Of a stretch of DNA of 64,000 nt, positions 10,054 through 31,921 are shown in pieces. This DNA is from Chloropicon primus (lineage: Eukaryota). The stretch is taken from contig CP060754.1 in NCBI GenBank assembly GCA_023205875.1, positions 434,001 through 498,000 on the forward strand. The letters are read 5' to 3'. Below the pieces are notes generated by a model. That model worked only from the letters and a program-made list of their open reading frames with translations. It had not been told where the DNA came from and ran no database searches. The position numbers and the translations under genes are program-made. The first letter of the stretch is position 1, and every line of letters begins with the position of its first letter.

Positions 10054-13000
10054 CTATTGGTTTTGGAGCACCTTGATCTGGATCCTGACGCAGTCCTCGT
10101 TGTTGTTGTCGACGTCGTTGATGAAGACCAGGGTCTCGTACATGCCTGGCTTGAGGTCCAGCGCCCTGAAGGAGATGCCGACCACGCCAAGGGCGCCGGC
10201 CTCGAGCTCCAGGAGGCCAGGGTTAACCTTGACGAGCCAAGGGTGGGCAGGCTTGAAGCTGAAGGTCTTCCTCGTGGACCACGCATTCTCGTATGATATT
10301 TTGCTCTCGTGGACCGTTCCGGCGATCACCTGAAGTTCGTACGTTTTCGAGACTGGAGGGTCTTCCCCGCGAGCGGCCAGCAACACGGACTGGGCGAGCC
10401 TTCCAGTCTCCACGTTAACGATGTTCAGCATCGCGTGGAGCCTCCCGGCGATGAGCGGGCAGAACGACACCTGGACCTCAGAAAGCGAGTCGGATATGAG
10501 AGTGAACTCCTTCGGCACCACCTGGATCTCATCTGGGTGAGAGGTGAAGCACATGACCTTCTGGGACGTCGCCGTGCCCTTCACGACAAGGTTTGAGATG
10601 GTCGTCTGTCCCGTGAGTCCCGATACGTCGACCTTCCTGACGGTCGTTACGGAAAACTTCCAAACCTGCAGCAGTACGGACTGGAACTTGTCCGCGTAAA
10701 AGAAAGTCAAAAACTCTCTGCTCTCCGGGGCAGTCCCACTCTTGCTGCACTTGATAACCATCTCTTTGCCTTGGTCACTCTGCTCGACCTTCACGATGAC
10801 GTTCTCGTCATTCGCTCGTAGGCTCTGCACCTCGGTGCTCGCTGTACTGTTGTTGTTGACGGACCTGAGGAGCCCCGCCTCCAGCGGGATGCTGTGCTTG
10901 AGGATCGAGAATTCGGACGTGTGCAGATTCATGGTCTGATCCACGACGCAGGGGTGAACCTCGATCAAGATCTCGATCTGGGACTCGACCACACCCGTTC
11001 TCTCGCACACGAGGGAGACGTGAATCACCTTCTCCGTGGCCACCTGAATGGAATCCAGGGGACAGTACTTGAAGGGCACGTAGCACTCGTCAAAGGAGCC
11101 AAGGAAGAGGCGGTTGCCGTCAAGAATGTCGCGCTCCGGCGCCGAAGCAGATTCAACTCTCTTCATGGACCTCAGGTGAGACCACTCGTCCGCCCGCAGG
11201 ACGAGGTTGAGCTCCAGGTCGCTCACATCTATCCGGAAGGTCCTGTTGCCCCCCCTCGGATTCACAAACTTCTCCTCGAAGAAAAGTACTTCCCCAACCC
11301 TCGCCTTCAGCATCTTCTTCCCCACGAGCTTCTGCCGGAGCTTGGATTTGATTATGTTTTCCCTCTTCATTAACTTCACGTGACAAACGTCCTCGTGCAG
11401 CTTCTGCCTGATCTTGTACCCCAACTCGTAGTTATCAGATATGTTGTGCCCCATGTACCTTTCCTTTCTCTTGTACCTGCGTTTCTCGACCTCGATCAGC
11501 TGGTGAATCAAGGACCCGGAGCTCTCGTTGGGATTGATATTCAGCTCCTGCATCACCACCTCGGGCCTCTTCAGGAGCGAACGTTTGGTGTCATCAAGAC
11601 CGACAGAATCTTTGGTGTTGCCCTCCACATCCTTCTCAGATCCTACGTTGATCAGACGAAGTATCAAGTGGGTTTTTCCCCCGCTCAAAGCAGCCTCGTC
11701 CTCGAGCCCAGTGAGCTTGAGGCTCTCTCTCCTGCCCTGATCCCTGCTGCTGTCTTCGGGGTGCAGGTCCCCAACTTTGCGGATTTCCACCTCTTGCAGC
11801 TGCTCCACCACGTCTTTACCTTGCCTCAACAAGGGCACCAAGTCCACGCTGGCGAAGCCGTACTGGAACATCGACTTGGCATCCCAAACATTCAGCTGCA
11901 ATTTCTTGTTCAGCAGGTACTCGCAAAGTCTCTCTTTTCTCTCCGCGAGTCCGTCCGGGTCCTCCTTGTCAACCTTGAACTTCAGCGTCAGTCCCTCTGG
12001 GCTCGCAATGTTTCCCCTTGAGGCGTTCTTGAACATGTAGACATCACTCTCTCCGCTCCTCTCTAGTGCCACCTTGCACGTCGTTGATTCCTTGAAGTCG
12101 AAGAAGTTCAAGGTGAAGTACAGGGACTCGAGCTTGGAAGGATTCTCTGATTTGTAAGCGAGCAGCTGCAACACGATTTCGTTCACCATCTTGGGATCAC
12201 TCCTTTCCTTCTCCAGATCAGGCATCCCCTTGCCGTTCTCCTGCTTGGCTGGGAAAGGTCGGCCCTGCTGTCCTCCAGCGGATTTGTTTGAAATTTTCAC
12301 CTCCTGCAACTGCATCTTTGCCATAGTGGCTCTGGAGACCCCGAGGTCCTTCTTCACTGCCTTTGCGCTGGCCGGCCTCCCTGAGGAGGTCTTCTTCACG
12401 GCGACCACAACCCTCCTCGGCGGCTCTTCCTTTGGAGCGGGCGCAGGCACGGCAGGTTGGGACGGCAGAGGAGCTCTCACCGGTCGTGGCCGTGGGCGGC
12501 CCTCCTTCTGCGAGCCCTCTTTCGCTGCCGTGGGAATGGGGTGCAACTTCGGCTTTCGTTGTTGAGCTGTCTGCGGCGGTGGAAGCTTTGGCGGCTCCTC
12601 CCTTGGTGGTTCTGGTTTGATGTCCTTCTCCTTGGGAGGCTCTGGCTCCTCTTCTTTGCTTGCAGCAGTTTCAACTTGCGTCGAAGCCCTCTCTGGTTCA
12701 TCCGTCTTCACTGGCGCTGAGGCCTGCGCCGGCTCCGAAGTCCTCTCCACTACCTGAACCCTGTCCGTGGATCTAGCAGCCGCAGAGGAACTGATCGCTC
12801 GGTCAAGAGAAACTGCCTTTGGAGTTTCCAGCACCGCTGGAACGCGCGGCTTCCTTTGACCGGTTATCACTTGGCAGTACACTGTTGGACTGAACACGGG
12901 ATTCTGTGGGTCCTCAGCTATCGTTGCTCTCCAGTTCAGGAGCGGTGAATTGTTTGCGAGGCGCCCAGGTCCGCACTCGAGAGAGCAGTTGATCTGCTTC

Positions 13001-14115
13001 CCTTCGCCATCGTCTGAAAACATGGAGATTGGGAGCCAACCCAGATGCAACCTATCTGGAGACAGATCCACGTAGAGCTCGATGACAAGGGCGATGAACT
13101 CGTCCTCTGGAACGTCCTTTACGGTGATGTCGGTGTCAAGCTGCAGGTGGGTGTCCTGATAAAGTTTCATGAACTTCAGCTTCTCCCTGCAAGCTGTTCC
13201 ACCGATCTCTCTGCGTCCGTTGTGGGCTGCTACGTTGACGTAAAAGTTGTCCTTGAGCCAACTCGACCAGCCCTCGACGTCCTTCAAGAGCTCGGCCAGA
13301 ACGGACTCGATGTAGTTCTTAGGCAGGCTGAAGTGCATGTTTTTCACCTTGATGTCAACCGCTGGCGTTTTCTGGGGCGCGGCAACTGGCGTGGAGCCGT
13401 CGAACACCAGGAATGTCTCCTTCCCCTTGCCGTCGAAGCGGGAGCACCCTGGAATGATCTCCCTCGAATCCACGATGCATGAGTCCCGTACGAGCCTGCT
13501 GCACGCGCCGAGGAAGTTGTCGTTGTACCTGACCGAGAATATCGCCTTGCACTCTCCGAGCGACTTTCCCTTCGAAGTCCCCGCGAACAAGAGCACCCTC
13601 GGAGTTCCCTCGAGAAGGGGAATCTCGAACAGTTTCCCTTGGTTCGCCTCTGCCTCGGTGCCGTACAGCACGTTCAGTGGGATGGGCACCCATCCAATCG
13701 ACTCCTCGAGGGTCTCGACGCTTTTTTCCAACTCCACCTTAACGAGCTCCACCACCACCACGGTCTTCTCGAGGTTGTGCCTGGACCAGAAGTGCACCGT
13801 CTTGTCCGCGTTGCACTTCCAGGAGCCCTCCTCGTGGCCCGGCTGGACTCTCTCAGAGACCAGCGTGTTGCCGAAGAAGGCCTTCCCTTCCAAGTCGAAC
13901 ATCGTGAAGCAGAGCTTTAGACACGTCCCCTCGACCACGCTGGGGATGTTCTTGACGGTGGCCAACGTGAGCTCCCATCCCTTGTCCTCCTGCGTCAAGG
14001 ATGTCGCCCCGTTCCCCACCTTTCGCGGAAAGTAGATGGAGCTCTGCTTTCTCTGGAACTTCCTCCAGTCTTCCACCGTCCTCGAGGCGCAGAACACGCC
14101 GCTCGCCTCCTCCAT
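10054..14115 (-). CDS. NPHP4: Nephrocystin-4 (ciliary transition-zone protein)
   Basis: 1353 aa; N-terminal C2 domains (FFGNT, VVVELV, IGWVPIPL), Pro-rich linker, EIVLQLLAY C2 with LQLNVWDAKSMFQYGFASVDLVPLLRQGK, GEVLFFEEKFVNP and C-terminal ASH/MSP-like beta domains. Confidence 0.85.
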   Translation of the reverse strand: MEEASGVFCASRTVEDWRKFQRKQSSIYFPRKVGNGATSLTQEDKGWELTLATVKNIPSVVEGTCLKLCFTMFDLEGKAFFGNTLVSERVQPGHEEGSWKCNADKTVHFWSRHNLEKTVVVVELVKVELEKSVETLEESIGWVPIPLNVLYGTEAEANQGKLFEIPLLEGTPRVLLFAGTSKGKSLGECKAIFSVRYNDNFLGACSRLVRDSCIVDSREIIPGCSRFDGKGKETFLVFDGSTPVAAPQKTPAVDIKVKNMHFSLPKNYIESVLAELLKDVEGWSSWLKDNFYVNVAAHNGRREIGGTACREKLKFMKLYQDTHLQLDTDITVKDVPEDEFIALVIELYVDLSPDRLHLGWLPISMFSDDGEGKQINCSLECGPGRLANNSPLLNWRATIAEDPQNPVFSPTVYCQVITGQRKPRVPAVLETPKAVSLDRAISSSAAARSTDRVQVVERTSEPAQASAPVKTDEPERASTQVETAASKEEEPEPPKEKDIKPEPPREEPPKLPPPQTAQQRKPKLHPIPTAAKEGSQKEGRPRPRPVRAPLPSQPAVPAPAPKEEPPRRVVVAVKKTSSGRPASAKAVKKDLGVSRATMAKMQLQEVKISNKSAGGQQGRPFPAKQENGKGMPDLEKERSDPKMVNEIVLQLLAYKSENPSKLESLYFTLNFFDFKESTTCKVALERSGESDVYMFKNASRGNIASPEGLTLKFKVDKEDPDGLAERKERLCEYLLNKKLQLNVWDAKSMFQYGFASVDLVPLLRQGKDVVEQLQEVEIRKVGDLHPEDSSRDQGRRESLKLTGLEDEAALSGGKTHLILRLINVGSEKDVEGNTKDSVGLDDTKRSLLKRPEVVMQELNINPNESSGSLIHQLIEVEKRRYKRKERYMGHNISDNYELGYKIRQKLHEDVCHVKLMKRENIIKSKLRQKLVGKKMLKARVGEVLFFEEKFVNPRGGNRTFRIDVSDLELNLVLRADEWSHLRSMKRVESASAPERDILDGNRLFLGSFDECYVPFKYCPLDSIQVATEKVIHVSLVCERTGVVESQIEILIEVHPCVVDQTMNLHTSEFSILKHSIPLEAGLLRSVNNNSTASTEVQSLRANDENVIVKVEQSDQGKEMVIKCSKSGTAPESREFLTFFYADKFQSVLLQVWKFSVTTVRKVDVSGLTGQTTISNLVVKGTATSQKVMCFTSHPDEIQVVPKEFTLISDSLSEVQVSFCPLIAGRLHAMLNIVNVETGRLAQSVLLAARGEDPPVSKTYELQVIAGTVHESKISYENAWSTRKTFSFKPAHPWLVKVNPGLLELEAGALGVVGISFRALDLKPGMYETLVFINDVDNNNEDCVRIQIKVLQNQ

Positions 14116-15718: not shown

Positions 15719-17092
15719 ATGACGGCAACCGAAGTGGACAAGGGGACGACGGAGGAGAGGGCTGCGGAGGCAGCGGGACCAACACCGGCGGTTGAGGCGA
15801 CAAAGCCCGAGGCGACCGAGGCAGGAGCCGCTGCGACGGAAGCGGGAGCAGGGGCAGCGACGGAGCCCGTGGAGAAGGAAAAGGGGAAGAAGGAGGGTGC
15901 GATGCCTGCGGAGAAGCCAAGTCAAGACGGTGAGGTCGTCCTCGACGAGAACACCTCGCTTTATATCAGAAGGCAGGTGGAGTTTTACTTCAGCGATAGC
16001 AACCTGCCCAAGGACACCTTCCTGAGGGGGAAGGTGGAGGAGGACGAGGAGAAGAAGGTCGAGATCGCGGTTCTCGCCAGCTTCTCCAAGTTGCGGGCAA
16101 TTTACAAGAAGTTCTTCAGGGTGAGCCTGCCTGAAGCCAAGCCCGGGTCGCAGGGGAAGTACGAGGTTCCAGAGAAGATTCGTAAAGCTTTGACGGAGGC
16201 GTTGAGGTCATCTGAGTTCCTCGAATTGAGCGCGAACGGCACGAAGGTTGGCAGGAAGGACCGACTGGCCAAGGAGGACTACGCGAAGGTGTTGCGGGAA
16301 GTTGACCGAAGGACCCTTCACGTGAGTCCGATCTCATCCAGGGCAACCATAGGGACGATCAGAAAATTCTTTTCTTCCGAGAAGTTGGGTGGTCATGACA
16401 TCCTGAGTGTGAGACTTGACCCGTCTGAAGTGAAGAAAGCACACAGCAGGTTTGCTTACGTCGAGTTCAAGACACACGAGAAAGCACAAGAGTTTGCCAA
16501 GGAGCACAACGGCAAGGCAGAGATGGATGGAGCAAAATTATCGCTCGCACTCAAGGAGGATCACGTCAGGGAAGTGAAAGAAAGGAATGACGGGTTTGTG
16601 AGAGCAGAGAGTAAAGGATTGCTTGCCAAGCTCGTCTTCAAGGAGGAAGTCGGCACGTTGGACTACAGAGACATAGAAGAAGCTTTCCATTCCGCGACCA
16701 AGGGAACCCACAGAGACTACGTGGAGAAGACTGTTGCGAAAGATGTTCGCGAGGACACCGGAAGCAAGAGAGTATACTATGTGATGTTGAAGAAAAGGGA
16801 TGAGGCAACTGAAACCTTTCTCCAGTCCTTTGAGGATACTGCTCCTTTGAAGATCAAGGTCAAGTCGAGGGAAACAGATGTCGAAGCAACATTGCAATTC
16901 GTAAGCAAGAGCAAGGAAGAAGTTACAGAGGAGGAGATGAACTTTTGGATCTCCAACCACTTTTTCCTTGAGAACAGGAGGAAGAGGAAGGACAGAGACT
17001 TTTCTGCAGGAGGTCGTGGAGGAAGGTCCGTAAGAGGTCGTGGAAGAGGAAGAGGCGGTGGTAGGGGCCGTGGTGGAAGAGGAAGAAGGTAG
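15719..17092 (+). CDS. La/LARP RNA-binding protein (La motif + RRM + RGG tail)
   Basis: IRRQVEFYFSDSNLPKDTFL La motif; FAYVEFK RNP1; C-terminal RG/RGG repeats. Confidence 0.85.
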   Translation: MTATEVDKGTTEERAAEAAGPTPAVEATKPEATEAGAAATEAGAGAATEPVEKEKGKKEGAMPAEKPSQDGEVVLDENTSLYIRRQVEFYFSDSNLPKDTFLRGKVEEDEEKKVEIAVLASFSKLRAIYKKFFRVSLPEAKPGSQGKYEVPEKIRKALTEALRSSEFLELSANGTKVGRKDRLAKEDYAKVLREVDRRTLHVSPISSRATIGTIRKFFSSEKLGGHDILSVRLDPSEVKKAHSRFAYVEFKTHEKAQEFAKEHNGKAEMDGAKLSLALKEDHVREVKERNDGFVRAESKGLLAKLVFKEEVGTLDYRDIEEAFHSATKGTHRDYVEKTVAKDVREDTGSKRVYYVMLKKRDEATETFLQSFEDTAPLKIKVKSRETDVEATLQFVSKSKEEVTEEEMNFWISNHFFLENRRKRKDRDFSAGGRGGRSVRGRGRGRGGGRGRGGRGRR

Positions 17093-17196
17093 TCCAAGCA
17101 AACACAGCAGAACATCGGCGCAGGAGTGGATTCGATATTAGTCGATTCTTGAATAACTAAAGTTAAAAGGACGTAAGAGCACTTAGAGATCTAAGT

Positions 17197-20100
17197 TTAC
17201 CAGAATGGCATTGCTTGGTTTCCGTCGCTGGTCTTCTGATTTCCAGAACAAATTATTCTCGCACTGTTGAACAAGGAGAAGAGCAAATTCCACAATGCAA
17301 AGAGGCACAAAGCCTTCACAGAGAACGCAAAATAAGTGTGTGATATTCCCTGCAAGTCCGGATAACTCACCACAGAGAAGGGTAAAAATATCATCAGCTG
17401 AAGTACGAACGCCAGAGTCTGATTGAAAGTAGCCAAAACAATTTTCGTAGCTGCTGATCTGATGTTGTGATTGGCATACATAATCTGCTCAGAAGTGATC
17501 GCAACAAAGTTCAGAAAGCCCCAAAGGTACCACTGGGCATAAAAGCCATGGATGAATGAGGAAAATGCAAGTACCAGCAGCACCCCCTCCACGTTACCAC
17601 GGGCAAAGGAGTATATGTACCTTAGGAAAAAGTCACGCCAGGAGACGTGGAAGCTGTTCCAATGCTGTCTTACGGAGAGACTGCTCCTGAGATGACTAAC
17701 TGGTGTATCGTTTGGGGCATGCACACCATCCATCAAAGCAAGGGCCCTGGCTGATCCAAAGATAACGTGACTATGAAGAAAAACAAACATCAAGAACATC
17801 TGTCCGTACACAAAATATTCAGACCCTTGAAGATTCACAGGCTCTACAAGCATGGAAGGATTGTGAATCTTGAGGAAGAATATTGTTGGCATGTAGAAGG
17901 TCTGTAGAGCAACAAGGAGGGCAAGTACTGTTGCAAGCATCCCAATAAGTTGGTGAAGCCCGACAGATACACGGCCATACATCAAAGAGGCACGCTGAAC
18001 CACCTGGCTCATCACAGAACGCTCGGCCATCTTGTCCGCGTTACGCATGGTCGGCACATGGTTCACCTTCAAACTGGCAGCAGGACTGGCCCTGAAATGG
18101 CGGTACTGCATACAAGGACCGTGCATGTATAAGGGAGCGTATAACATGTAAGCCCAGTACTGCAAAGATGACTGTTTTTCTTCTCGTGGTCTGCTCTTTC
18201 TTCCTTTCCTCTCTCTGCTCACTTCGTCGAGTACATCCAAGCTGTAACTCAACTGTCGAAGAACCAGATATCTAAATGTCTTCAAAGGGCTGAAGGGGAC
18301 ACTCTGCTTACGACACCATCCATGAACTAACCACATAGGCCAACCTGAGGTACGCTGCGGTAAAATGTCGAAGTAATTATTCGCTGCAATGAGGAGTAGA
18401 TTTGTGCCCCATATCACCCACCTGCACCTTGACGCAGGGTGCTTCCTCTCTACCGCGGCACATACCATTCTGCACACCACGAGATTGACAAAAGCACTCA
18501 GAAAGGACCAGAACGCTGAGATTCCGTGCATTGAAAGGACTTGAAACAGAGAAACTCCTATTGTGACTGCAGCGGGACTCCAGCGTCTGGTAATCCAAGG
18601 TATGCGCCGGGCGAAAACCAGGAGCAATGTAGAAAACAATTCCATCGGTAGGAATTCAAAAGCCCAAACCAAGAAGAGATGGTGAAAGGGGTCAAGCTTT
18701 CTACCAAAGAAGCCATTCTCCAGATGCCTCATACCTGCCTTTAACGCAAATATGGAAAATTTTGAATCGCTGCCATTTTCAATTCCAACACGAATTGAAT
18801 TCTTGTCAAAGAGGTGAGCAGGCTCCTGCTTCCACAGAGACAGTGTGGTCCCATCCACAATCCTAGTGACACTCATCACAAGAAGGACAGCCACCAGAAA
18901 GTACATTACCATGCACAAAGATGGGACGTCCTTCATAATGGACTTCTGAGTCATCCGCCTCTTGAGTCCTGCTGCTGGCTTAGGTGCTTCACTTTTTGAT
19001 TCCATATTCACAATACGATCAGTGCTCAAACTCCAAGCTTCATGATTTGGCAAATCGCTGCGTTCACCTTGCCTTTTCGCTACATGAATCACGAGTTTTA
19101 CTCTGAACTTACTCACCAGCAGATAGCAATGGCAACTTTTGCATGGCTTCTTGGTAGCACTCTGGCGAGCAGAATCTTTCACGCAATCATCTTGGATGCA
19201 CAGGATATCTTTTGTGATGCAGTAAGCAACACCGTCCAGGGTACCGTGATCCAGCAGAACGGATGGAGGAAGGTCACAGCCAAACAAGTCCTCAAGGCTG
19301 TTGTGCAAAGCAACCATCAGAGAAGAGTCCATGCCACTATCCATGAGGTTGTCGCGAACGCTCACCTCAAGGCCCATTGCCCGCACTGTGACCAAGAGAT
19401 TATCAAGAATCTGAATCTTGGCATCAGAAAAACCCAAAGAGGGCAAAGCATCCAGATTGAGATTCTTCCCTTGAAGAGAATCAACAGGCATGGTGAATGT
19501 CGTCGACTGCACCACATCCAGGTTGTTGTCCAGATACTTCTTACGGCACTCTGACCTCCTCACTTTCCCACTTGTCGTTTTTGGAATAGTCCTTGGCTTG
19601 ATGAGTTGCAGAGAGTGGAGACTCATGTTGTGCTTCCTCGTGGAGCTCAGGACTTGGTTGGTGATCTCCCTGATTTCCTCATCGCTCAAGTCACCAGATC
19701 GAACCTCGGCAACAGCGCACATCACATCCTCCTCCGTCTGAAAGGCAGCGACGCAACCTGTGCGCACCATCCTGTGACTCTGAGATATCACAAACTCAAC
19801 ATCATCTGGAATGATATTTCTGCCGTGGACCACAATCAGATCCTTCATGCGACTCACAAAGTACAATTCATTCTGCCAAACAAAACCGAGATCACCCGTG
19901 CGAAGGTACTCCTTCCTTTCCGCGGCGGTGTTTTGCTTCTCACCCTTGATTCTTGCGTGGAACGTGTGCCACGTTTCCTCCTCTTTGTTCCAATACCCTC
20001 CTGTTTTCGACGGGCTGGAGATCCAGATCTCACCAATACACCCCGAGGCCACCCTGGTGCAGTCAGAGGGATCGACGATGCTCACATCAATGTCGCAATC

Positions 20101-21639
20101 TTTTCTGTTCACTTTGCCGCAACTGCAGAGGCTCACAGTTCTTCCAATATCACCGATCTTTGCGCACAAGTCATCTTCAGAAGCATGGTTGTGGAACCAA
20201 TAGTTCTTGATGATGACTTGTCCCTGACTCAGAGCATCTCTATCCACGAAAAGGACTGTCTCGCCGCCATGAGTGACGTACACACAGTGCTCCGCAAGAC
20301 CAAATCCGCCTCCGAACACGCTGTTTGGGAGGCCAGCATGCCTGAACAGGAAGTAGAAATCCCTCATCGTCTTGTATTTGATCATGCCCGCACCGTTCAA
20401 GGCCAACCGGAGGTGGGAGAAATCGTACTCAGCGACTTGGAAATTCCCCCTCTTTCCCTTGGCTACCGCGTACTTGACGAGCTGGCTGTACCCGAAGTCT
20501 GGCGCGGTGATGACGGTGGCCTGATATTTTGTGATCGCCTCTGCCCAGGCGAGTGGATTTTTGAGGAAGGTGAACGGGCTCATGATCACCTGCTGTCCGC
20601 CTGGGACATACATGGAACATAGGGTATTTCCGATGAGTCCCATGTCATGGTACTGTGGCAACCAGCTGACAATTGTGCCAGGAACATCCTCGATCCAGGA
20701 GACATTGGCTGGCGGGCGCTCATCTCGTGATACCTGTCGGCACTTGTCGAAGAGTACGGTGCTGTGCCCCGAGATTCGAATCATTGTCCAAATGTTGTGG
20801 GACAGCGCGGCGTACGTGATCATCACCCCCTTCGGTGCAGACGTGGAACCAGACGTGTACTGCAGAAAAGCAACGTCCGTGCCAGTGACCAGCTCGTCCT
20901 CGAATGTGTCGCAGCCCTTCACACCGCTCGTGGAGTACCACCGAACCCACACGGGCCAAGAACTGTACCCCATCTCATCGGCAGCACCGGGAGCGCGGGA
21001 GGTTGTCTGGCCACCCCACCGCAACCTGGAGGTCCTCATCCACTGCCTCGCGCTTCTGCCAAAGCTCGCCCCGGCGGTGTAAGTGGCGGCATACCTCGCC
21101 ACCCATATGAAGGACGAGTCCGTGAGTGCGATAGACGCCCCGGCATCCTTGGCGATGGACCCCAACACCTTCGCTTGCTGCTCGAGATTCTTCGGATTGG
21201 GAGGGTAGGCCGGGACGGCGGTGACCCCGAGCCTGAAGCAAGCGATGAGCGCCGCGACGAACTCGAGCCCGGGAGGGTAGACGAGGAGCACCGTGTCCCC
21301 CTTCTTGGCCCCCCACTTCCTGAGCTTCTCTGCGATCCCCCCCGAACGGGACCAGAGCTCCCAGTTTGTCGCCGTGACCTTGTCGGACCCGCCTGCCGTC
21401 GAGTTGAGGAACGTGAACGCGATTCTGTCCCTGAATCCTTCGGAATTCGCCCAAACGCTTAGAGCCCTTGCTGGACTGATCGGGTCAGGAGCCATCGAGG
21501 CTCCTCCACCCTGGTTGCCTTTTCGATCCACCAAGGGGAGGGTGCTGGTCGTCGACGTCTTCGCGAATGGATCTGCGTTCAAGTCCAAGGATGAAAGCGG
21601 CTGAACTTTCCCACGGTCTCTGTTTCTCTGGTTAATCAT
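17197..21639 (-). CDS. Fatty acyl-AMP ligase - ACP - MBOAT fusion protein, copy A
   Basis: AFLQYTSGSTSAPKG, WLPQYHDMGLIG, FGLAE, YLRTGDLG, IPKTTSGK (FAAL); DSGMDSSL (ACP); YAPLYMHGP, HWNSFHVSWRDFFLRYIY, SSFIHG (MBOAT). Start could be Met 21639 or 21495; a possible GTGAGT donor lies in the linker at 19116. Confidence 0.88.
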   Translation of the reverse strand: MINQRNRDRGKVQPLSSLDLNADPFAKTSTTSTLPLVDRKGNQGGGASMAPDPISPARALSVWANSEGFRDRIAFTFLNSTAGGSDKVTATNWELWSRSGGIAEKLRKWGAKKGDTVLLVYPPGLEFVAALIACFRLGVTAVPAYPPNPKNLEQQAKVLGSIAKDAGASIALTDSSFIWVARYAATYTAGASFGRSARQWMRTSRLRWGGQTTSRAPGAADEMGYSSWPVWVRWYSTSGVKGCDTFEDELVTGTDVAFLQYTSGSTSAPKGVMITYAALSHNIWTMIRISGHSTVLFDKCRQVSRDERPPANVSWIEDVPGTIVSWLPQYHDMGLIGNTLCSMYVPGGQQVIMSPFTFLKNPLAWAEAITKYQATVITAPDFGYSQLVKYAVAKGKRGNFQVAEYDFSHLRLALNGAGMIKYKTMRDFYFLFRHAGLPNSVFGGGFGLAEHCVYVTHGGETVLFVDRDALSQGQVIIKNYWFHNHASEDDLCAKIGDIGRTVSLCSCGKVNRKDCDIDVSIVDPSDCTRVASGCIGEIWISSPSKTGGYWNKEEETWHTFHARIKGEKQNTAAERKEYLRTGDLGFVWQNELYFVSRMKDLIVVHGRNIIPDDVEFVISQSHRMVRTGCVAAFQTEEDVMCAVAEVRSGDLSDEEIREITNQVLSSTRKHNMSLHSLQLIKPRTIPKTTSGKVRRSECRKKYLDNNLDVVQSTTFTMPVDSLQGKNLNLDALPSLGFSDAKIQILDNLLVTVRAMGLEVSVRDNLMDSGMDSSLMVALHNSLEDLFGCDLPPSVLLDHGTLDGVAYCITKDILCIQDDCVKDSARQSATKKPCKSCHCYLLVSKFRVKLVIHVAKRQGERSDLPNHEAWSLSTDRIVNMESKSEAPKPAAGLKRRMTQKSIMKDVPSLCMVMYFLVAVLLVMSVTRIVDGTTLSLWKQEPAHLFDKNSIRVGIENGSDSKFSIFALKAGMRHLENGFFGRKLDPFHHLFLVWAFEFLPMELFSTLLLVFARRIPWITRRWSPAAVTIGVSLFQVLSMHGISAFWSFLSAFVNLVVCRMVCAAVERKHPASRCRWVIWGTNLLLIAANNYFDILPQRTSGWPMWLVHGWCRKQSVPFSPLKTFRYLVLRQLSYSLDVLDEVSRERKGRKSRPREEKQSSLQYWAYMLYAPLYMHGPCMQYRHFRASPAASLKVNHVPTMRNADKMAERSVMSQVVQRASLMYGRVSVGLHQLIGMLATVLALLVALQTFYMPTIFFLKIHNPSMLVEPVNLQGSEYFVYGQMFLMFVFLHSHVIFGSARALALMDGVHAPNDTPVSHLRSSLSVRQHWNSFHVSWRDFFLRYIYSFARGNVEGVLLVLAFSSFIHGFYAQWYLWGFLNFVAITSEQIMYANHNIRSAATKIVLATFNQTLAFVLQLMIFLPFSVVSYPDLQGISHTYFAFSVKALCLFALWNLLFSLFNSARIICSGNQKTSDGNQAMPFW

Positions 21640-24600
21640 CCTGCCGAACCAAGTGAGGTAGCCAATAAGTTCCACTCCGTGTGCCTTCGCTCGCAGGTCG
21701 ATGTATTCGTACTAGCACGACCTCCAACTCGTCCCATCCACACCAGACGCAACCCTCGACTTTACGACAAGGTAGATGGTGAGGAACGCGAAAAGCGGAC
21801 ACGCGAGGCCTCTCCCCGTAAGCAACGCACCCGTTTGTCTCTCACCCGCGACCGCGTTCGCCGTTAGACGAAGTGAACTTTGCCTCCCCTCGTCCTCTTC
21901 TCCTCACTGGCTACAATCATTGGCGTTTCGAATCGGTCATGATGATAGAAAAGGCGGGCCAAAATCCGTAACGCTCGAGAGTGAGGAGGAAGGGAAGCCT
22001 TCTCGAGAGGAACGGTTGGAGAGGATGGAAGTCACGATGGACGGCGGTAAGGATGGCGGGTGCCACCTCGTTGCCCTCATGGGGTTTCTGGCGCGCCACG
22101 GGAGCAGGGAGGAGCAAGTTTTCGTCGACGAGGACGGAAGGGAAGCCCGGGTGACCTCACGAGAGGTCTGGTCCCGTTCGGGGGGGATCGCAGAGAAGCT
22201 CAGGAAGTGGGGGGCCAAGAAGGGGGACACGGTGCTCCTCGTCTACCCTCCCGGGCTCGAGTTCGTCGCGGCGCTCATCGCTTGCTTCAGGCTCGGGGTC
22301 ACCGCCGTCCCGGCCTACCCTCCCAATCCGAAGAATCTCGAGCAGCAAGCGAAGGTGTTGGGGTCCATCGCCAAGGATGCCGGGGCGTCTATCGCACTCA
22401 CGGACTCGTCCTTCATATGGGTGGCGAGGTATGCCGCCACTTACACCGCCGGGGCGAGCTTTGGCAGAAGCGCGAGGCAGTGGATGAGGACCTCCAGGTT
22501 GCGGTGGGGTGGCCAGACAACCTCCCGCGCTCCCGGTGCTGCCGATGAGATGGGGTACAGTTCTTGGCCCGTGTGGGTTCGGTGGTACTCCACGAGCGGT
22601 GTGAAGGGCTGCGACACATTCGAGGACGAGCTGGTCACTGGCACGGACGTTGCTTTTCTGCAGTACACGTCTGGTTCCACGTCTGCACCGAAGGGGGTGA
22701 TGATCACGTACGCCGCGCTGTCCCACAACATATGGACAATGATTCGAATCTCGGGGCACAGCACCGTACTCTTCGACAAGCTTCAAGAGGTTGGGGTGGA
22801 GTACTTCAGCAACTACCCCAAAGGCGAATCAATCGACCACTGGATCGAGGATGTTCCTGGCACAATCGTCAGCTGGTTGCCACAGTACCATGACATGGGA
22901 CTCATCGGCCATCTTTTGACGCCCTTGCTCATCCCCGGAATGAAGTCTGTGAGAATGAGCCCGTTCACCTTCCTCAAAAATCCACTCGCCTGGGCAGAGG
23001 CGATCACAAAATATCAGGCCACCGTCATCACCGCGCCAGACTTCGGGTACAGCCAGCTCGTCAAGTACGCGGTAGCCAAGGGAAAGAGGGGGAATTTCCA
23101 AGTCGCTGAGTACGATTTCTCCCACCTCCGGTTGGCCTTGAACGGTGCGGGCATGATCAAATACAAGACGATGAGGGATTTCTACTTCCTGTTCAGGCAT
23201 GCTGGCCTCCCAAACAGCGTGTTCGGAGGCGGATTTGGTCTTGCGGAGCACTGTGTGTACGTCACTCATGGCGGCGAGACAGTCCTTTTCGTGGATAGAG
23301 ATGCTCTGAGTCAGGGACAAGTCATCATCAAGAGTTCACTGAGCCACGAGTCCGAAACTAGCTCCTCCATCGACGATTTTCGGGAACAGGAGAATATTGT
23401 GAGCCTCTGCAGTTGCGGCAAAGTGAACAGAAAAGATTGCGACATTGATGTGAGCATCGTCGATCCCTCTGACTGCACCAGGGTGGCCTCGGGGTGTATT
23501 GGTGAGATCTGGATCTCCAGCCCGTCGAAAACAGGAGGGTATTGGAACAAAGAGGAGGAAACGTGGCACACGTTCCACGCAAGAATCAAGGGTGAGAAGC
23601 AAAACACCGCCGCGGAAAGGAAGGAGTACCTTCGCACGGGTGATCTCGGTTTTGTTTGGCAGAATGAATTGTACTTTGTGAGTCGCATGAAGGATCTGAT
23701 TGTGGTCCACGGCAGAAATATCATTCCAGATGATGTTGAGTTTGTGATATCTCAGAGTCACAGGATGGTGCGCACAGGTTGCGTCGCTGCCTTTCAGACG
23801 GAGGAGGATGTGATGTGCGCTGTTGCCGAGGTTCGATCTGGTGACTTGAGCGATGAGGAAATCAGGGAGATCACCAACCAAGTCCTGAGCTCCACGAGGA
23901 AGCACAACATGAGTCTCCACTCTCTGCAACTCATCAAGCCAAGGACTATTCCAAAAACGACAAGTGGGAAAGTGAGGAGGTCAGAGTGCCGTAAGAAGTA
24001 TCTGGACAACAACCTGGATGTGGTGCAGTCGACGACATTCACCATGCCTGTTGATTCTCTTCAAGGGAAGAATCTCAATCTGGATGCTTTGCCCTCTTTG
24101 GGTTTTTCTGATGCCAAGATTCAGATTCTTGATAATCTCTTGGTCACAGTGCGGGCAATGGGCCTTGAGGTGAGCGTTCGCGACAACCTCATGGATAGTG
24201 GCATGGACTCTTCTCTGATGGTTGCTTTGCACAACAGCCTTGAGGACTTGTTTGGCTGTGACCTTCCTCCATCCGTTCTGCTGGATCACGGTACCCTGGA
24301 CGGTGTTGCTCAATACGTTACGAGCGAGATCTTTGAGAAAGCAGGGGTAATGTCTGTGATTGATGTTCAGGCGGAAGGTGAATTAATGAATTCATCAAAC
24401 AAGGCAGCAGCAGGACTCAAGAGGCGGATGACTCAGAAGTCTGTTATGAAGGATGTCCCATCTTTGTGCATGGTAATGTACTTTCTGGTGGCTGTCCTTC
24501 TTGCGACGAGTGTCACTAGGATTGTGGATGGGACCACACTGTCTCTGTGGAAGCAGGAGCCTTCAAAGTTCTTTCAAAGGCCACTCCAGGTTGGGAAAGA

Positions 24601-25539
24601 TATGGTCAAGCTAAGGGATGGTTTGTTTGGTAGAAAGCTTGACCCCTTTCATACCCATTTTTTGGCTTGGACCTTTGAAGCGTTACCAGTGTATCTGATT
24701 TCTGCGCTGCTCTTGGTTTTCGCCCGGCGCATACCTTGGATTACCAGACGCTGGAGTCCCGCTGCAGTCACAATAGGAGTTTCTCTGTTTCAAGTCCTTT
24801 CAATGCACGGAATCTCAGCGTTCTGGTCCTTTCTGAGTGCTTTTGTCAATCTCGTGGTGTGCAGAATGGTATGTGCCGCGGTAGAGAGGAAGCACCCTGC
24901 GTCAAGGTGCAGGTGGGTGATATGGGGCACAAATCTACTCCTTATTATATTGAACAAAATGATAGAGCAGAAGTTCTCTCCTTTGCGTTCTGGTCTTCTG
25001 TCGGACTGGCCTATGTGGTTAGTTCATGGATGGTGTCGCAAAGATCTGAAAAAGTACTCACCAAATGTTTCTTACAAATACTTGGTTCTTCGACAGTTGA
25101 GTTACAGCTTGGATGTACTCGACGAAGTGAGCAGAGAGAGGAAAGGAAGAAAGAGCAGACCACGAGAAGAAAAACAGTCATCTTTGCAGTACTGGGCTTA
25201 CATGTTATACGCTCCCTTATACATGCACGGTCCTTGTATGCAGTACCGCCATTTCAGGGCCAGTCCTGCTGCCAGTTTGAAGGTGAACCATGTGCCGACC
25301 ATGCGTAACGCGGACAAGATGGCCGAGCGTTCTGTGATGAGCCAGGTGGTTCAGCGTGCCTCTTTGATGTATGGCCGTGTATCTGTCGGGCTTCACCAAC
25401 TTATTGGGATGCTTACCATTATTGGTCTGGCTTTTCTATCGATGCAGACCTTCTACATGCCAACAATATTCTTCCTCAAGCTTCACGATTCCCAGTCCAA
25501 GACTGAACCTATGAATCTTCAAGGGTCTGAATATTTTGT
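17810..25539. repeat. Large mosaic inverted repeat: arms ~17810-21356 and ~22167-25539 around an ~810-bp unique spacer
   Basis: Length-matched reverse-complement blocks: 22167-22780/20743-21356 (614 bp), 22955-23333/20205-20583 (379), 23398-24310/19225-20137 (913), 25083-25414/17935-18266 (332); off-frame ORFs in the track are identical between arms. Confidence 0.95.
21640..22024. promoter_or_regulatory. Putative bidirectional promoter between the divergent FAAL-ACP-MBOAT genes
   Basis: Position only: unique sequence between two divergent start codons; no motif identified. Confidence 0.4.
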
Positions 25540-26107
25540 CACCTACAGTCTTTTCACCTTGGCAATATTTCTGCAGAGCTTTGTTGTCTTTGGGCTCTGC
25601 AGAGCTCTTGCTTTAATGGATGGCGTAGAGCCCCCAAAGGACGTGCTCCTCTCCTTCTTGCGCAGCTCCGTGTCTGTCCAGACCCACTGGAACAACTTCC
25701 ATGTCTCGTGGAGGCAGTTCTTCTTCAGGTACATTGTGATGCAGCACAAGGAAACGTTTCAGAGGGGCTATGTGATCGATTTTGCTGTCTTCATGTTCTC
25801 TGCATTCTTGCATTCGGAGCCTATATGGGTTGCCTACTTCTTGTACAACTTCTTCATGTACCAGTTTGAAAAGGTGCTTCTCAAGTGGAAAAGGTTCAAG
25901 GATGGAGATGCTGTCGTGCGTGGGGTGTATCAGAGCATTTTGCTTGCTGCAAATCTCTCGTTCTTTCCACCACTTCTTCTCTACGAGGAACCAAGGGGGA
26001 GCATAAAGTATTCTTCGGTTGGACCAGCGTACTTCTTCCTCTTTTCTGTCTGCTTTTGCTACTTCAACTGCATCAGAATCAAAAACTACCCGGATCAATT
26101 TATTTAA
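22025..26107 (+). CDS. Fatty acyl-AMP ligase - ACP - MBOAT fusion protein, copy B
   Basis: Same FAAL motifs as copy A; ACP Ser codon at 24209 (GMDS); MBOAT HWNNFHVSWRQFFFRYI and SAFLHS (His codon 25811); uninterrupted ORF. Confidence 0.88.
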   Translation: MEVTMDGGKDGGCHLVALMGFLARHGSREEQVFVDEDGREARVTSREVWSRSGGIAEKLRKWGAKKGDTVLLVYPPGLEFVAALIACFRLGVTAVPAYPPNPKNLEQQAKVLGSIAKDAGASIALTDSSFIWVARYAATYTAGASFGRSARQWMRTSRLRWGGQTTSRAPGAADEMGYSSWPVWVRWYSTSGVKGCDTFEDELVTGTDVAFLQYTSGSTSAPKGVMITYAALSHNIWTMIRISGHSTVLFDKLQEVGVEYFSNYPKGESIDHWIEDVPGTIVSWLPQYHDMGLIGHLLTPLLIPGMKSVRMSPFTFLKNPLAWAEAITKYQATVITAPDFGYSQLVKYAVAKGKRGNFQVAEYDFSHLRLALNGAGMIKYKTMRDFYFLFRHAGLPNSVFGGGFGLAEHCVYVTHGGETVLFVDRDALSQGQVIIKSSLSHESETSSSIDDFREQENIVSLCSCGKVNRKDCDIDVSIVDPSDCTRVASGCIGEIWISSPSKTGGYWNKEEETWHTFHARIKGEKQNTAAERKEYLRTGDLGFVWQNELYFVSRMKDLIVVHGRNIIPDDVEFVISQSHRMVRTGCVAAFQTEEDVMCAVAEVRSGDLSDEEIREITNQVLSSTRKHNMSLHSLQLIKPRTIPKTTSGKVRRSECRKKYLDNNLDVVQSTTFTMPVDSLQGKNLNLDALPSLGFSDAKIQILDNLLVTVRAMGLEVSVRDNLMDSGMDSSLMVALHNSLEDLFGCDLPPSVLLDHGTLDGVAQYVTSEIFEKAGVMSVIDVQAEGELMNSSNKAAAGLKRRMTQKSVMKDVPSLCMVMYFLVAVLLATSVTRIVDGTTLSLWKQEPSKFFQRPLQVGKDMVKLRDGLFGRKLDPFHTHFLAWTFEALPVYLISALLLVFARRIPWITRRWSPAAVTIGVSLFQVLSMHGISAFWSFLSAFVNLVVCRMVCAAVERKHPASRCRWVIWGTNLLLIILNKMIEQKFSPLRSGLLSDWPMWLVHGWCRKDLKKYSPNVSYKYLVLRQLSYSLDVLDEVSRERKGRKSRPREEKQSSLQYWAYMLYAPLYMHGPCMQYRHFRASPAASLKVNHVPTMRNADKMAERSVMSQVVQRASLMYGRVSVGLHQLIGMLTIIGLAFLSMQTFYMPTIFFLKLHDSQSKTEPMNLQGSEYFVTYSLFTLAIFLQSFVVFGLCRALALMDGVEPPKDVLLSFLRSSVSVQTHWNNFHVSWRQFFFRYIVMQHKETFQRGYVIDFAVFMFSAFLHSEPIWVAYFLYNFFMYQFEKVLLKWKRFKDGDAVVRGVYQSILLAANLSFFPPLLLYEEPRGSIKYSSVGPAYFFLFSVCFCYFNCIRIKNYPDQFI

Positions 26108-26125
26108 GTGGAGTGTTTTACAGTC

Positions 26126-28228
26126 TCAGCGAGGAGGATCACAATCCAATGAATCTTCAATGTCATTTAAGAAGTACGTCTTCATATCTCCCTTCCCTTT
26201 CACTTTTACTGAGACGGGATCCTCCCACTCAAACTCCTTCTCGTCACGAACAAAACCATGTGTAGCCTCCGAGACTTGCAGTCGCCCCGCTCTCCCGGTG
26301 GACTCCATCCGATTTGCCGTATTCACGGTATCGCCGAACAAACAAAATCTCGGCATCTGACTACCGACGACACCAGAACACACGGCTCCAGTATGTGCAC
26401 CTGCCCTCACCTGACACCTTTTACCATTTGGCATTGTAAGATTGTGGGCTTCCTTCAGGGCAGCTACCGCAAATCGTATCGCAGCTTTGGCGGAGGAGGA
26501 CGCGTCCATGGATTCGCACGATATCATGCTAGTTGATCCTCCCACCGAAAAAGACCGAACGCTCTCTTGTGAGTTCACATTCAAGCCCGAAGCAATCATA
26601 AAGGCGTCACCAATCGTCTCCACCTTGAACAAGTGACCATCCATCTCGATGAGATCGTCAAAGGCGACGAACAAGCTGTGTAGGAAACGCATTACGTCTT
26701 TTGGTGAGCACTCTTGGGACATTGCTGTGAAGCCACAGATATCTGTGAATACGATTGTCACGTTTTGATGCAAGCGAGCCACAGTACGCCCGAGAGTCCC
26801 ACTGGACCCCAGGCTCCGCAAACTTCCTTCGGTGCTGCGAGAGGTACTTTCCTGCATCTGCTCAATGATCAGGTCCCTCGCGATGACTGGAGGAAAGATG
26901 CTGTTGATCAGCTTTTCTTGGTCCTCCTTCTGCTTTACGAGTGCCTGCTCCTTTTGCTTGTTCAGTGCTTGGATGATCTTTTTGTTGATGAAAGCTCGCC
27001 TGTTCGAGTAGTCCAATATGAAGCTCACAATAAGAATGCATACCACAATAATGCACACAATCAGCAGAGGACTCACTGCAATCACCTCAAAAAGCTTTTT
27101 ACAGTAAGTCGTGCTTACATAGCAAGTGAACTCGTCTGTCCTCTCATCATTTGCTTGTTGCAAGACATCCCAAAGATCGCCGTAGGGATTGACGAGTGGA
27201 ACAAGGACGATGAAAATGCTGTGACCAACAGGAAGGTTGACGTGTCAATGCGTCCGTGTCCACCAATTACCCTTCATAGAGCAAGCTTACCTGACAAACA
27301 GTGTCATGATCTCCAATGTGAGTGCAGGCGGAAGACCTGAAAGTGACCCGCGCACGGCGATGAGTTTCGACCAGTGGCAAAATAGTCAGTCCATGCATAT
27401 CGAAGGAGCAGAGATACGATGGACACTCACCCATGAAGAGAATGGATATCAGAGGAGCCACTTCGTAGAAAATGAGGAAGATCAACCATCCAGACGCCCG
27501 CCCAAAGAAGCCAAAATAACCCGAGTTGAAGGCCGTAAAGTTCCACGCACGCATGCCGAGGAAGACGACGTACGCTGGTGAGAAACGAATTCTTGTCAGT
27601 GCAAGCTCAGAGGGAGAGGGAGAGAGACACACGCACGCACGCATACACGCAGAGAGAGAGGTCCAGAGCTCTGGGGCACTTACCGGAACCAATCAGGTAC
27701 AGAATGACGCGCTTGCTCTCGAACATTTTCATGCGGTATATCAGGAAGCACGCGACCGCACACAAAATGAAGCTGAAAAATCCGATGCAGGACACCATGT
27801 AGTACGACAAGAGCGGGTCAGGACCCGTGATTGGCGCAAGGAACTCTTGTACCTCAGGCTCTCCGAACTGAGCGGCATTGAAAGGATAGAACATCCAGTC
27901 GGGTATGAATGTGCCGACGGTGTAGATGAGTCCGCTGGTGGCGAGGCCGAGCATGAATCTGCTCTTCGAGTTCAAAATCACATCCTCGATGTACTCGTCC
28001 TCGACGTTCCGGTCCTTGAAACCTAGGAACCAATACTCGGACGGAGGACCTCTGTCCTCCCGCTCCCTGCGACGACGTGCGAGAGAGAGCCGCAAAACCC
28101 CTGTGTCAGAAGAGCCGTTACTTTTGTGCGGGCACCAAACGTCGCAAAATCTCTTACTCGAAGTCGTAGTCCTCCCTGTGCAAGCATTTCCTGCACCCTT
28201 TGTCTATCAGCAAGTCCAGGAAGACCAT
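26126..28228 (-). CDS. Multi-pass membrane class III nucleotidyl cyclase, guanylyl-type; 4 exons
   Basis: VTIVFTDICGFT, FKVETIGDAFM, MPRFCLFGDTVNTANRMES (Glu/Cys pair typical of GTP specificity); upstream hydrophobic exons joined by three GT-AG introns. Confidence 0.85.
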
Positions 28229-30325: not shown

Positions 30326-31921
30326 TCAGGGGTCGGCCCAGGCGGGGTGCTGGCTGTCGATGGTCCTCAGGGCCTGCCAGACCGCGGAGTTGCACTTGAA
30401 CCCGCTGCCAAAGGCGATCTGCCACACGCGGTCGCCGTAGCCGACCTGGCCCTCGTGCTCCGACCAGGCGAGCTCGTACCAGATCGACGCGGAGGAGGTG
30501 TTGCCGTAGTGGAAGAGGGCCTGCCTCGAGGGCCTCACGAGGTCATCGGTGAGCTTGAGGTTCTCCTGGAGGGCGTCGATCACCCCCCTGCCGCCCGCGT
30601 GGATACAAAAGTGGTCGAAAGCCTTCTTGAAGTCCGGGATGTAGGCCTTGATCTTCAGCTTGAGGACCTTCCTCTGCACGAGGTTGAGGAAGAACCTTGC
30701 CTGCTCCGTCAGGGGCAGCACGAGGGGCCCGAGGGTGGTAATATTAACTTTCAGGGACTCCCCCGCGATCGCCATCAGGCTCTTGTCCAGCTTGACCCCC
30801 ACGATGCCGTCGGGGTCCTCCTTCTGGAACACGCAGTTGTAGGACGCGTCGTCCGCGCCCTTGTGGGTGCGAACCACGTGAAGCAGCTGGTACTTGGCCC
30901 TCCAGTAGTCCCTCCTCTTGTTGGAGAGGAGCGAGGCCGCGCCGCCCACGCGGAACAGCATGTTGGGGATCAACATGCTCTTCTGGGTCCCGAGGTAAAA
31001 GTTCTGGGTGATGTTCTCCGTGCTCACCACGAGGGCGTTCGCGTTCTTGTGGTGCTGGAGCAGGTCCCTGGCCAGGTTGACCGCGATCACCCCCGCGCTG
31101 CAGCCCATTCCGGACAGGTTGTACGACTGGATGTTGCTCCTCATCTTGAACTTGTTCACGATCATCGCGGTCATGGACGGGGTCGGGTTGAACAGGCTGC
31201 AGTTGACGATGAGGATGTCGATGTCCTTGGGCTTGACCCCAGTCTTCCCCAGCAGGTCCTCCACCAGCGTGAAGAGCACGACCTCAGCCTCCTTCCTCGA
31301 GTTCTCCAGGGTCGCCTCCTGGGACAGGTCGGTGATCCCGGGCGGCAAGTAGGTCCCCTCCGCGGTCACCCCGGCGTTCTTCTGGATCTTGTGCAGCATG
31401 AAGTCCATCGAGCTCTGCACGACATCCTTCTTGTGGTTCTTCGACAGCCTGAACCTGGCCAAGTGCGTCAGCTCCTTGATGCTCACCTTCCAGTCCTTGG
31501 GCGGGTGGAGCACCGAGAAGTCGACGAGGTACACCGGGGTCCTCCTGGCGAACAGGTAGGCCGCGACCCCGAAGGCGAGGGCCACCGAGAGCGCGATCGT
31601 GTGGAGCATGCTGCCCTGGACCTGCGTCTTCACCGCGGTCTCCCACAGGTTGGAGATCTCGCCGGACTCGGTCATCCGAAGGAGCTGGACCCCCACCGCC
31701 GCGAGGCCCACGAGGGTCGCGAACACGAACAAGTTCCTCGACAGGAGCCGGTACCCGTGCCTCACGTACTTCATCGCGACTTCCGCCCGGAAGTCCGGCA
31801 GGCTCAGCAACAGCCTCCTGCGGGGGGACCCGGACCTCGACCACTCGCTCCCGCTCCCCTCGGAGTCCGAGGACGAGGAGGAGCCCCCGCTCCTCGCTGG
31901 ATACCCAGCGCGCAACGACAT
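30326..31921 (-). CDS. KCS: 3-ketoacyl-CoA synthase (FAE1/KCS very-long-chain fatty acid elongase)
   Basis: VNCSLFNPTPS, NLSGMGCSAG, FCIHAGGRGVID, GNTSSASIWYEL, WQIAFGSGFKCNSAVW. Confidence 0.95.
   Translation of the reverse strand: MSLRAGYPARSGGSSSSSDSEGSGSEWSRSGSPRRRLLLSLPDFRAEVAMKYVRHGYRLLSRNLFVFATLVGLAAVGVQLLRMTESGEISNLWETAVKTQVQGSMLHTIALSVALAFGVAAYLFARRTPVYLVDFSVLHPPKDWKVSIKELTHLARFRLSKNHKKDVVQSSMDFMLHKIQKNAGVTAEGTYLPPGITDLSQEATLENSRKEAEVVLFTLVEDLLGKTGVKPKDIDILIVNCSLFNPTPSMTAMIVNKFKMRSNIQSYNLSGMGCSAGVIAVNLARDLLQHHKNANALVVSTENITQNFYLGTQKSMLIPNMLFRVGGAASLLSNKRRDYWRAKYQLLHVVRTHKGADDASYNCVFQKEDPDGIVGVKLDKSLMAIAGESLKVNITTLGPLVLPLTEQARFFLNLVQRKVLKLKIKAYIPDFKKAFDHFCIHAGGRGVIDALQENLKLTDDLVRPSRQALFHYGNTSSASIWYELAWSEHEGQVGYGDRVWQIAFGSGFKCNSAVWQALRTIDSQHPAWADP

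Follow-up and report, generated by a model that had tools for sequence, protein, structure and literature searches.

In the tiny marine green alga Chloropicon primus, two genes that lie head to head on opposite strands were found to be a patchwork, in which blocks of near-identical DNA alternate with islands of strongly diverged sequence. Their products, A and B, are predicted three-domain lipid acyltransferases of the order FAAL-carrier-MBOAT, where FAAL stands for fatty acyl-AMP ligase and MBOAT for membrane-bound O-acyltransferase. The shared blocks are almost certainly kept alike by gene conversion that continues between the inverted arms, and selection probably keeps two substrate specificities apart in the islands, as judged from sequence comparison. 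An old head-to-head duplication, together with ongoing conversion and selection against converting those islands that are trans-specific, is in our view the likely history of the locus as a whole. The window analyzed here is a stretch of 64,000 nucleotides (contig CP060754.1, positions 434,001 to 498,000), and all positions refer to it. The features of the pair are as follows:

17197-21639, minus strand: paralogue A, one stop-free open frame with the likely start MINQRN at 21639
22025-26107, plus strand: paralogue B, with the same three predicted domains as A and the likely start MEVTMD at 22025
21357-22166: unique spacer of 810 bp between the innermost blocks, made of two unrelated N-terminal segments and a shared upstream region (21640-22024)
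22167-22780, plus strand (A: 20743-21356): block 1, 614 bp with 1 difference, P-loop YTSGST inside
22781-22839, plus strand (A: 20699-20742): island 2, loop preceding the SWLP-HDMG motif
22840-22908, plus strand (A: 20630-20698): block 2, 69 bp with 1 difference, SWLPQYHDMG motif
22909-22954, plus strand (A: 20584-20629): pocket island, trans-specific, aligned to the acyl-chain-pocket helix of solved FAALs
22955-23333, plus strand (A: 20205-20583): block 3, 379 bp, identical
23334-23397, plus strand (A: 20138-20204): island 4, putatively within the FAAL-specific insertion, homogenised in C. roscoffensis
23398-24310, plus strand (A: 19225-20137): block 4, 913 bp, identical, C-terminal part of the FAAL and the entire carrier domain
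24200-24217 in B, 19318-19335 in A: DSS serine motif of the carrier domain, inside block 4
24311-24404, plus strand (A: 18978-19224, 247 bp): carrier-to-MBOAT linker island
24405-25539, plus strand (A: 17810-18977): N-terminal two thirds of the MBOAT, seven blocks alternating with six islands
24405-24562, 24626-24651, 24714-24942, 25007-25038, 25083-25414, 25445-25480 and 25512-25539, in B: the blocks of the MBOAT region
25540-26107, plus strand (A: 17197-17809): paralogue-specific C-terminus of the MBOAT, including FHVSW and the predicted catalytic His
25805-25816 in B, 17545-17556 in A: FHVSW, site of the predicted catalytic His

By self-blastn (E<1e-5), the inverted pair is the sole repeat in the 64-kb window. 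Eleven colinear blocks, amounting to 2816 bp per arm, carry 7 differences (22732, 22867 and five within 24405-24562), and when split at each mismatch they give 15 exact matches with a sum of 2797 bp. Ten internal islands of 30-247 bp are about 56% divergent and differ in length in-frame or not at all; three of them, 30-46 bp long, are without indels. The initial annotation had reported the block coordinates, which proved exact on re-check, as well as two pairs of identical off-frame ORFs, both of which are exact reverse complements; its observation of only isolated substitutions in the blocks (22732 among them) and its estimate of about ten islands with in-frame length differences also held. 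The range it had given, 17810-25539, describes the patchwork correctly, but the paralogy reaches further: over the terminal 200 codons (17197-17809 and 25540-26107) 62/184 residues align alike, and this part behaves as one large terminal island. Both termini of the pair are unrelated or strongly diverged. At positions with a degenerate amino acid common to A and B, one and the same codon is used in 864 of 874 cases in the blocks versus 54 of 135 in islands and termini. Block identity therefore goes far past protein constraint, which bears out the earlier argument that purifying selection alone is insufficient.

The start of A agrees with the transcript proteins P0001 and P0121 and aligns with the N-terminus of its C. 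roscoffensis counterpart, and P0003, a protein labelled Chloropicon primus, matches B without a difference in its first 815 residues. In both public C. primus annotations B (P0003, P0124; 1035 aa) lacks about 320 MBOAT residues that were omitted as if an intron (window 24450-25450), and one of them splits A in two (P0125 and P0122). That both genes are continuous is indicated by the open frame, by proteins derived from transcripts and by the orthologues in C. roscoffensis. GC content is 48-50% at 16000-20000 and 24000-28000 versus 55-63% elsewhere, and GC3 drops along both genes from 0.8 to about 0.5.

Identical arms might be produced by assembly or polishing, if reads from one arm were confused with those from the other and a single consensus was imposed on both. 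Short-read polishing is indeed mentioned for published Chloropicon assemblies in the accessible text of PMC12301720, and our read evidence consists of read-derived contigs, which can drop variants, with one run possibly being the window's own source. However, one contig with the exact limits 19225-20137 on arm A and no alternative letter was given by each of three out of four runs (three studies), and in the fourth run the same segment was covered partly and in pieces, again with no alternative letter. Over the coding region of A only two sites had an alternative letter in any run, namely position 20791, where A and B are known to differ, and a site corresponding to a K-to-R change that is present in B alone of the second C. 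primus annotation. That annotation contains the same pair with this single private change, and C. roscoffensis has a like pattern with block sequence of its own and scattered single differences. With the pair found in two C. primus annotations and in C. roscoffensis, we regard an artefact as extremely improbable. At window position 21646, just upstream of the likely start of A, the window has G and three runs read A, which is either a strain difference or a base error of the window. An uncovered 5' end of B in run X2 was given no weight.

Subsequently, the pair was compared with that of C. roscoffensis (P0294 and P0274, here R1 and R2), which have consecutive accessions and lie on one contig; the comparison was made on proteins. 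The same patchwork was found. The initial annotation had predicted that blocks should group by genome and islands by paralogue, and this was borne out: among informative sites of the blocks 214 group by species, 0 by paralogue and 0 otherwise, among those of the internal islands the numbers are 2, 17 and 0, and in the C-terminus 0, 41 and 3. Islands and C-terminus combined, 58 of 63 informative sites follow the paralogue, and trees on blocks and on the C-terminus agree with the site patterns. The duplication is thus older than the speciation, and non-island sequence groups by species, silent sites included. The positions of the islands are shared as well. Of the differences between R1 and R2, 162/210 fall in the 258/1221 columns that are islands in C. 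primus, and the observed overlap of 143 was reached by 0 of 1220 circular shifts. In a third lineage (P0005, P0128, P0313), whose proteins come from short metagenomic contigs and may not be from one genome, 110/141 variable columns lie in 266/1186 island columns, an overlap matched by 0 of 1185 shifts. P0007 and P0133, a pair further removed, also diverge from each other in the pocket island and at MBOAT sites. The arrangement of blocks and islands is therefore shared, position for position, by at least three lineages. A second protein search gave one close relative among the 120 matches listed.

A recent duplication followed by fast replacement of the islands, or a dedicated cassette-swapping system, would account for the near-perfect identity of the arms and for the sharp island edges. 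Yet the islands group by paralogue and so predate the split of C. primus and C. roscoffensis, no common motif was seen by eye at the block edges, no second repeat was found in the 64-kb window, and among the 19 other long ORFs scanned 0 matched a recombinase family. We therefore give hardly any credence to such an origin, and an old duplication with continuing conversion is retained.

The individual islands behave differently. Against a block background identity of 74% between C. primus and C. roscoffensis orthologues, the pocket island is identical at 12/15 positions in A-R1 and at 14/15 in B-R2, with 4-5/15 across types. For the C-terminus the values are 128/201 (A-R1), 129/187 (B-R2) and 62/184 (A-B). 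Island 2 diverges between copies in both species (A-B 2/15, R1-R2 0/15) and is not conserved among orthologues (A-R1 2/15, B-R2 5/20), the linker is identical at 18/61 and 7/27 positions between orthologues, and islands M2 and M5 give a weak paralogue signal (11/20 vs 12/20; 2/10 vs 3/10). Island 4, with 2/19 identities in A-B and 18/19 in R1-R2, was homogenised in C. roscoffensis, so that islands can be erased or arise anew.

The age of the homogenisation was assessed with L081, a wild orthologue syntenic with A and the one useful locus among the best 80 of a genome-contig scan; all of the 80 loci listed from a scan of metagenome contigs were distant (29-34% identity, generic FAAL motifs) and none was used. 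L081 runs from A into the neighbouring La gene with 92% identity. At 2803 block sites it has 159 differences to A and 156 to B, compared to 5 between A and B, that is about 5.7% from both arms versus 0.2% between the arms. Since L081 is equidistant from two near-identical arms, their homogenisation postdates that split; this holds even if L081 is a collapsed sequence, because both island types would then have existed in its population. The proposal of an old duplication under recent or ongoing conversion is thereby supported, with homogenisation younger than the split from a close relative. The islands of L081 are A-like (3-14% apart) except for island 2, which is B-like, so that the contig may be chimeric. 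Four mini-blocks of 26-36 bp between islands differ at 0 of 122 bp between A and B and at 8 sites from L081, a contrast that is inflated by picking mini-blocks for identity and is only suggestive. Together with the homogenised island 4, the mini-blocks suggest that conversion may extend into diverged sequence. GC-biased conversion was not adopted as a candidate cause, since the GC excess of the blocks versus L081 (98:43) exceeded the one seen for islands and flank combined (101:73) only marginally (p 0.046; the flank by itself gave 58:33). L081:1-5653, comprising gene A and part of the La gene, is Chloropicon-like and was deposited in a bacterial bin titled Planctomycetaceae, likely by mis-binning.

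Pfam predicted AMP-binding and PP-binding domains in both A and B, with PF00550 above cut-off in both and a GMDSSL motif present. For the adenylation domain the top PDB matches were 3KXW, 7R7E/F/G, 8HD4, FadD32 and 3PBK, and NCBIfam FAAL models matched with E 1e-60 to 1e-88 versus 1e-32 or weaker for most CoA ligases, PRK07768 being an exception among the CoA ligase models (E about 1e-65); all NCBIfam matches of this domain lay below curated cut-offs. Its closest family by sequence is the FAAL, rather than acyl-CoA ligases or NRPS A domains. As CoA-blocking features of FAALs the accessible text of PMC8460268 gives W224, M231 and F279 of EcFAAL and the FAAL-specific helix, with the pocket proline P226. 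When aligned to 3PBK by sequence, SWLP-YHDMG, a segment matching the helix and the Phe of APDFGY are all present, so that the features of a blocked CoA pocket appear to be retained. A segment of similar length after the GLAE motif, a candidate for the FAAL-specific insertion, aligns with gaps to 3KXW and 7R7E on the sequence level.

The MBOAT was recognised in A by Pfam (PF03062, E 1e-12), and B was without a Pfam MBOAT match at 0.001. When the MBOAT part was searched by sequence against solved structures, nothing fell below E 0.1. The membrane part of B was modelled (pLDDT 73): 12/12 Foldseek matches at E<0.001 and 30/30 Atlas matches were MBOATs, and Z was 11-23 against MBOATs. HHAT had the top Foldseek rank and the longest alignment (Z 22.7, rmsd 4.3, 436 aligned, identity 13-14%), tied in Z with MBOAT7, PORCN and DltB, and the HHAT/Gup1 subfamily is at most a tentative placement. 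An MBOAT core fold is thus predicted for A from Pfam and for B from the model. The predicted catalytic His, assigned by motif, is kept in both proteins, and another His lies 33 residues upstream of it in A and 37 in B; MBOATs are described in the accessible part of PMC10213974 as having a polar residue 31-40 positions upstream of the catalytic His. Among 16 further proteins, chosen for scanning mainly by length from the 150 matches listed, at least 8 clusters combine AMP-binding and MBOAT domains. Distant fusions of AMP-binding (with or without carrier) and MBOAT are P0321, P0323-P0326, P0331, P0335 and P0366, which are 970-1680 aa long and in some cases lie on contigs >100 kb. P0036, P0047, P0018 and P0066 are FAAL-carrier fusions with DAGAT or ketoacyl-synthase output domains, some from eukaryotic transcriptomes.

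When the islands were placed on this architecture, the best-conserved one mapped by alignment onto the predicted acyl-chain pocket of the FAAL. Anchored on the HDMG histidine, Ala231 and Val235 of FadD23, which form the end of the acyl pocket according to the available passages of PMC9989471, fall inside the pocket island, and Val226/Leu227 lie at its edge. One column of this island is Gly in A-type and Met in B-type proteins in three lineages, and Ala vs Met in a fourth. At the aligned column the PDB sequences 7R7E/F and 7R7G have Ala and Ile, respectively, and 7R7G may be a mutant engineered for chain length at this position. The C-terminal third of the MBOAT, which bears the predicted catalytic motifs, likewise occurs as two conserved types. 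Between A and L081 pN/pS was 0.12 in the blocks, 0.17 in pocket and MBOAT islands, 0.17 in the C-terminus and 0.45 in the linker, and the pocket island had 4 synonymous and 0 replacement changes. Constraint at functional sites is suggested for the pocket island and the C-terminus; for island 2, the linker, M2 and M5 its signs are weak or missing. Purifying selection inside an island speaks for its function, yet it says nothing about harm from conversion.

The islands might also have escaped passively, by drifting early past the similarity needed for recombination and being frozen since then, with no selection against conversion. Their divergence of about 56% with in-frame indels fits such an escape, frozen neutral patches would likewise be trans-specific and conserved in position, and island 2 and the linker persist though their sequence is not conserved. 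Against it, the three indel-free islands of 30-46 bp survive between converted flanks, mini-blocks of only 26-36 bp were homogenised between islands, and island 4 was homogenised in one species, C. roscoffensis. Moreover, the best-conserved island lies on the predicted substrate pocket, with a dimorphism of small versus bulky residues in four lineages. Passive escape is consequently an unlikely explanation of the pattern in general, although the loop islands (island 2, island 4 and the linker) may be partly passive. Of the two options named by the initial annotation, escape from conversion or selection against it, the second is the better supported one for the pocket island and for the C-terminus of the MBOAT. 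The trans-specific patches likely mark the substrate-choosing parts of each enzyme.

Taken together, we propose that a gene for a three-domain lipid acyltransferase was duplicated head to head long ago and that ongoing conversion between the inverted arms would homogenise the blocks, through recombinational repair between arms 0.8-7.7 kb apart. The tracts would be short, down to 26-69 bp, and usually without crossover. Since a crossover would flip the inner segment and create hybrids, the in-phase island types of both annotated species speak for mostly non-crossover events. Selection would remove those conversions that erase the two specificities. Judged by homology, a fatty acid would be activated by the FAAL domain as an adenylate and passed, independently of CoA, to the fused carrier, and the MBOAT would move the acyl group to a membrane acceptor. 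Chain preference could be set by the pocket island, where one aligned column has Gly in A and Met in B, and the acceptor by the MBOAT islands, such that A and B would differ in both chain and acceptor.

A natural combinatorial switch, in which crossovers in the blocks flip the inner segment and hybrid FAAL-ACP-MBOAT enzymes occur in wild Chloropicon populations, would join the pocket of one copy to the membrane transferase of the other and might thereby yield different surface lipids. Two metagenomic proteins have this appearance: on a contig of 44 kb, P0004 is of B-type except for its C-terminus, which is A-type, and on one of 10 kb, P0286 is of B-type except for its pocket, which is A-type. 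Island types were assigned by a classifier that misplaced some reference islands through gap placement, for which reason only clear calls were kept. However, such mosaics were not counted as support because collapsed assembly paths yield the same mosaics. Metagenomic mosaics and the transcript proteins P0001/P0121 were rejected as proof of recombinants, as letters of A and B are likewise intermixed in the contigs of culture runs, and the metagenomic runs X7, X9 and X11, with 9-13 of 30 bins covered, were uninformative on wild haplotypes. The switch is accordingly rated as quite improbable. Chimeric assemblies of the A/B locus from metagenomes and transcriptomes call for caution in their use.

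Other lipid genes in the surroundings of the pair encode a FAE1-type ketoacyl-CoA synthase (30326-31921, at a distance of 4 kb from B) and, where the window starts, a patatin-type lipase (2-1234). An ORF of 1353 codons at 10054-14115 was without a Pfam match and may resemble nephrocystin-4.

The significance of the locus is threefold. As conversion wipes out tolerated differences, those that survive across species form a short list of candidate specificity determinants, and this list spans two enzyme classes with substrate choice that is hard to foresee from sequence, chain length for FAALs and acceptor for MBOATs. The pair is also a ready-made swap experiment on a near-identical backbone. Finally, a FAAL-carrier-MBOAT family that seems not to have been described before comes into view in an alga abundant in the ocean.

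In the Dlt pathway, DltA, DltC and DltB form a relay of adenylation, carrier and MBOAT proteins. The predicted order in A and B is the same, but on one polypeptide. FAAL-ACP didomains, as far as they are described in the accessible text of PMC8460268, PMC11837247 and PMC12820801, resemble A and B in that FAALs are the best matches, a carrier is fused and the CoA-blocking features align; the output domain is an MBOAT in A and B versus PKS/NRPS in those systems. FAAL fusions with lysophospholipid acyltransferases are reported (PMC8460268 / PMC12820801, available passages), and the term 'MBOAT' is absent from the main text of both papers and from five supplements of PMC12820801. With HHAT, DltB, PORCN and LPCAT3 (PMC10213974, accessible part) the proteins share the MBOAT fold over the whole domain, but identity to known MBOATs is 11-16% and the upstream polar residue is His, not Asn/Asp. 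Among the papers listed, our literature search found none on the A/B locus or on a FAAL-carrier-MBOAT fusion, an architecture that subscription papers, the supplements of PMC8460268, PMC6731263 or bioRxiv may list, and in two Chloropicon genome papers term look-up gave no passage on the locus in the text available.

Selection opposing gene conversion is an already known process. It corresponds to the Teshima-Innan model, in which selection keeps paralogues distinct despite conversion. For the R/S pair of ATP1A1 in Leptodactylus it was described (10.1101/2020.08.04.234435, accessible text), and like A and B this pair is a trans-specific duplication in which grouping by species prevails, with a minority of sites grouping by paralogue, and selection against conversion was invoked. 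The ATP1A1 copies are a tandem pair pointing the same way, with 12 substitutions and a tested function, whereas A and B are inverted, with 10 saturated, indel-bearing patches plus both termini and a predicted function. Islands of divergence were likewise reported for GOT1p1/p2 of Tigriopus (PMC3728101, available passages), where exonic islands lie amid converted sequence, an island is occasionally lost in a lineage, and selection versus reduced conversion is debated. There the comparison is on the population level and the islands are without indels, whereas the A/B patchwork stands between species that are 74% identical in protein. The A/B locus is an unusually clear case of a known process, in a protein family that seems uncharacterised.
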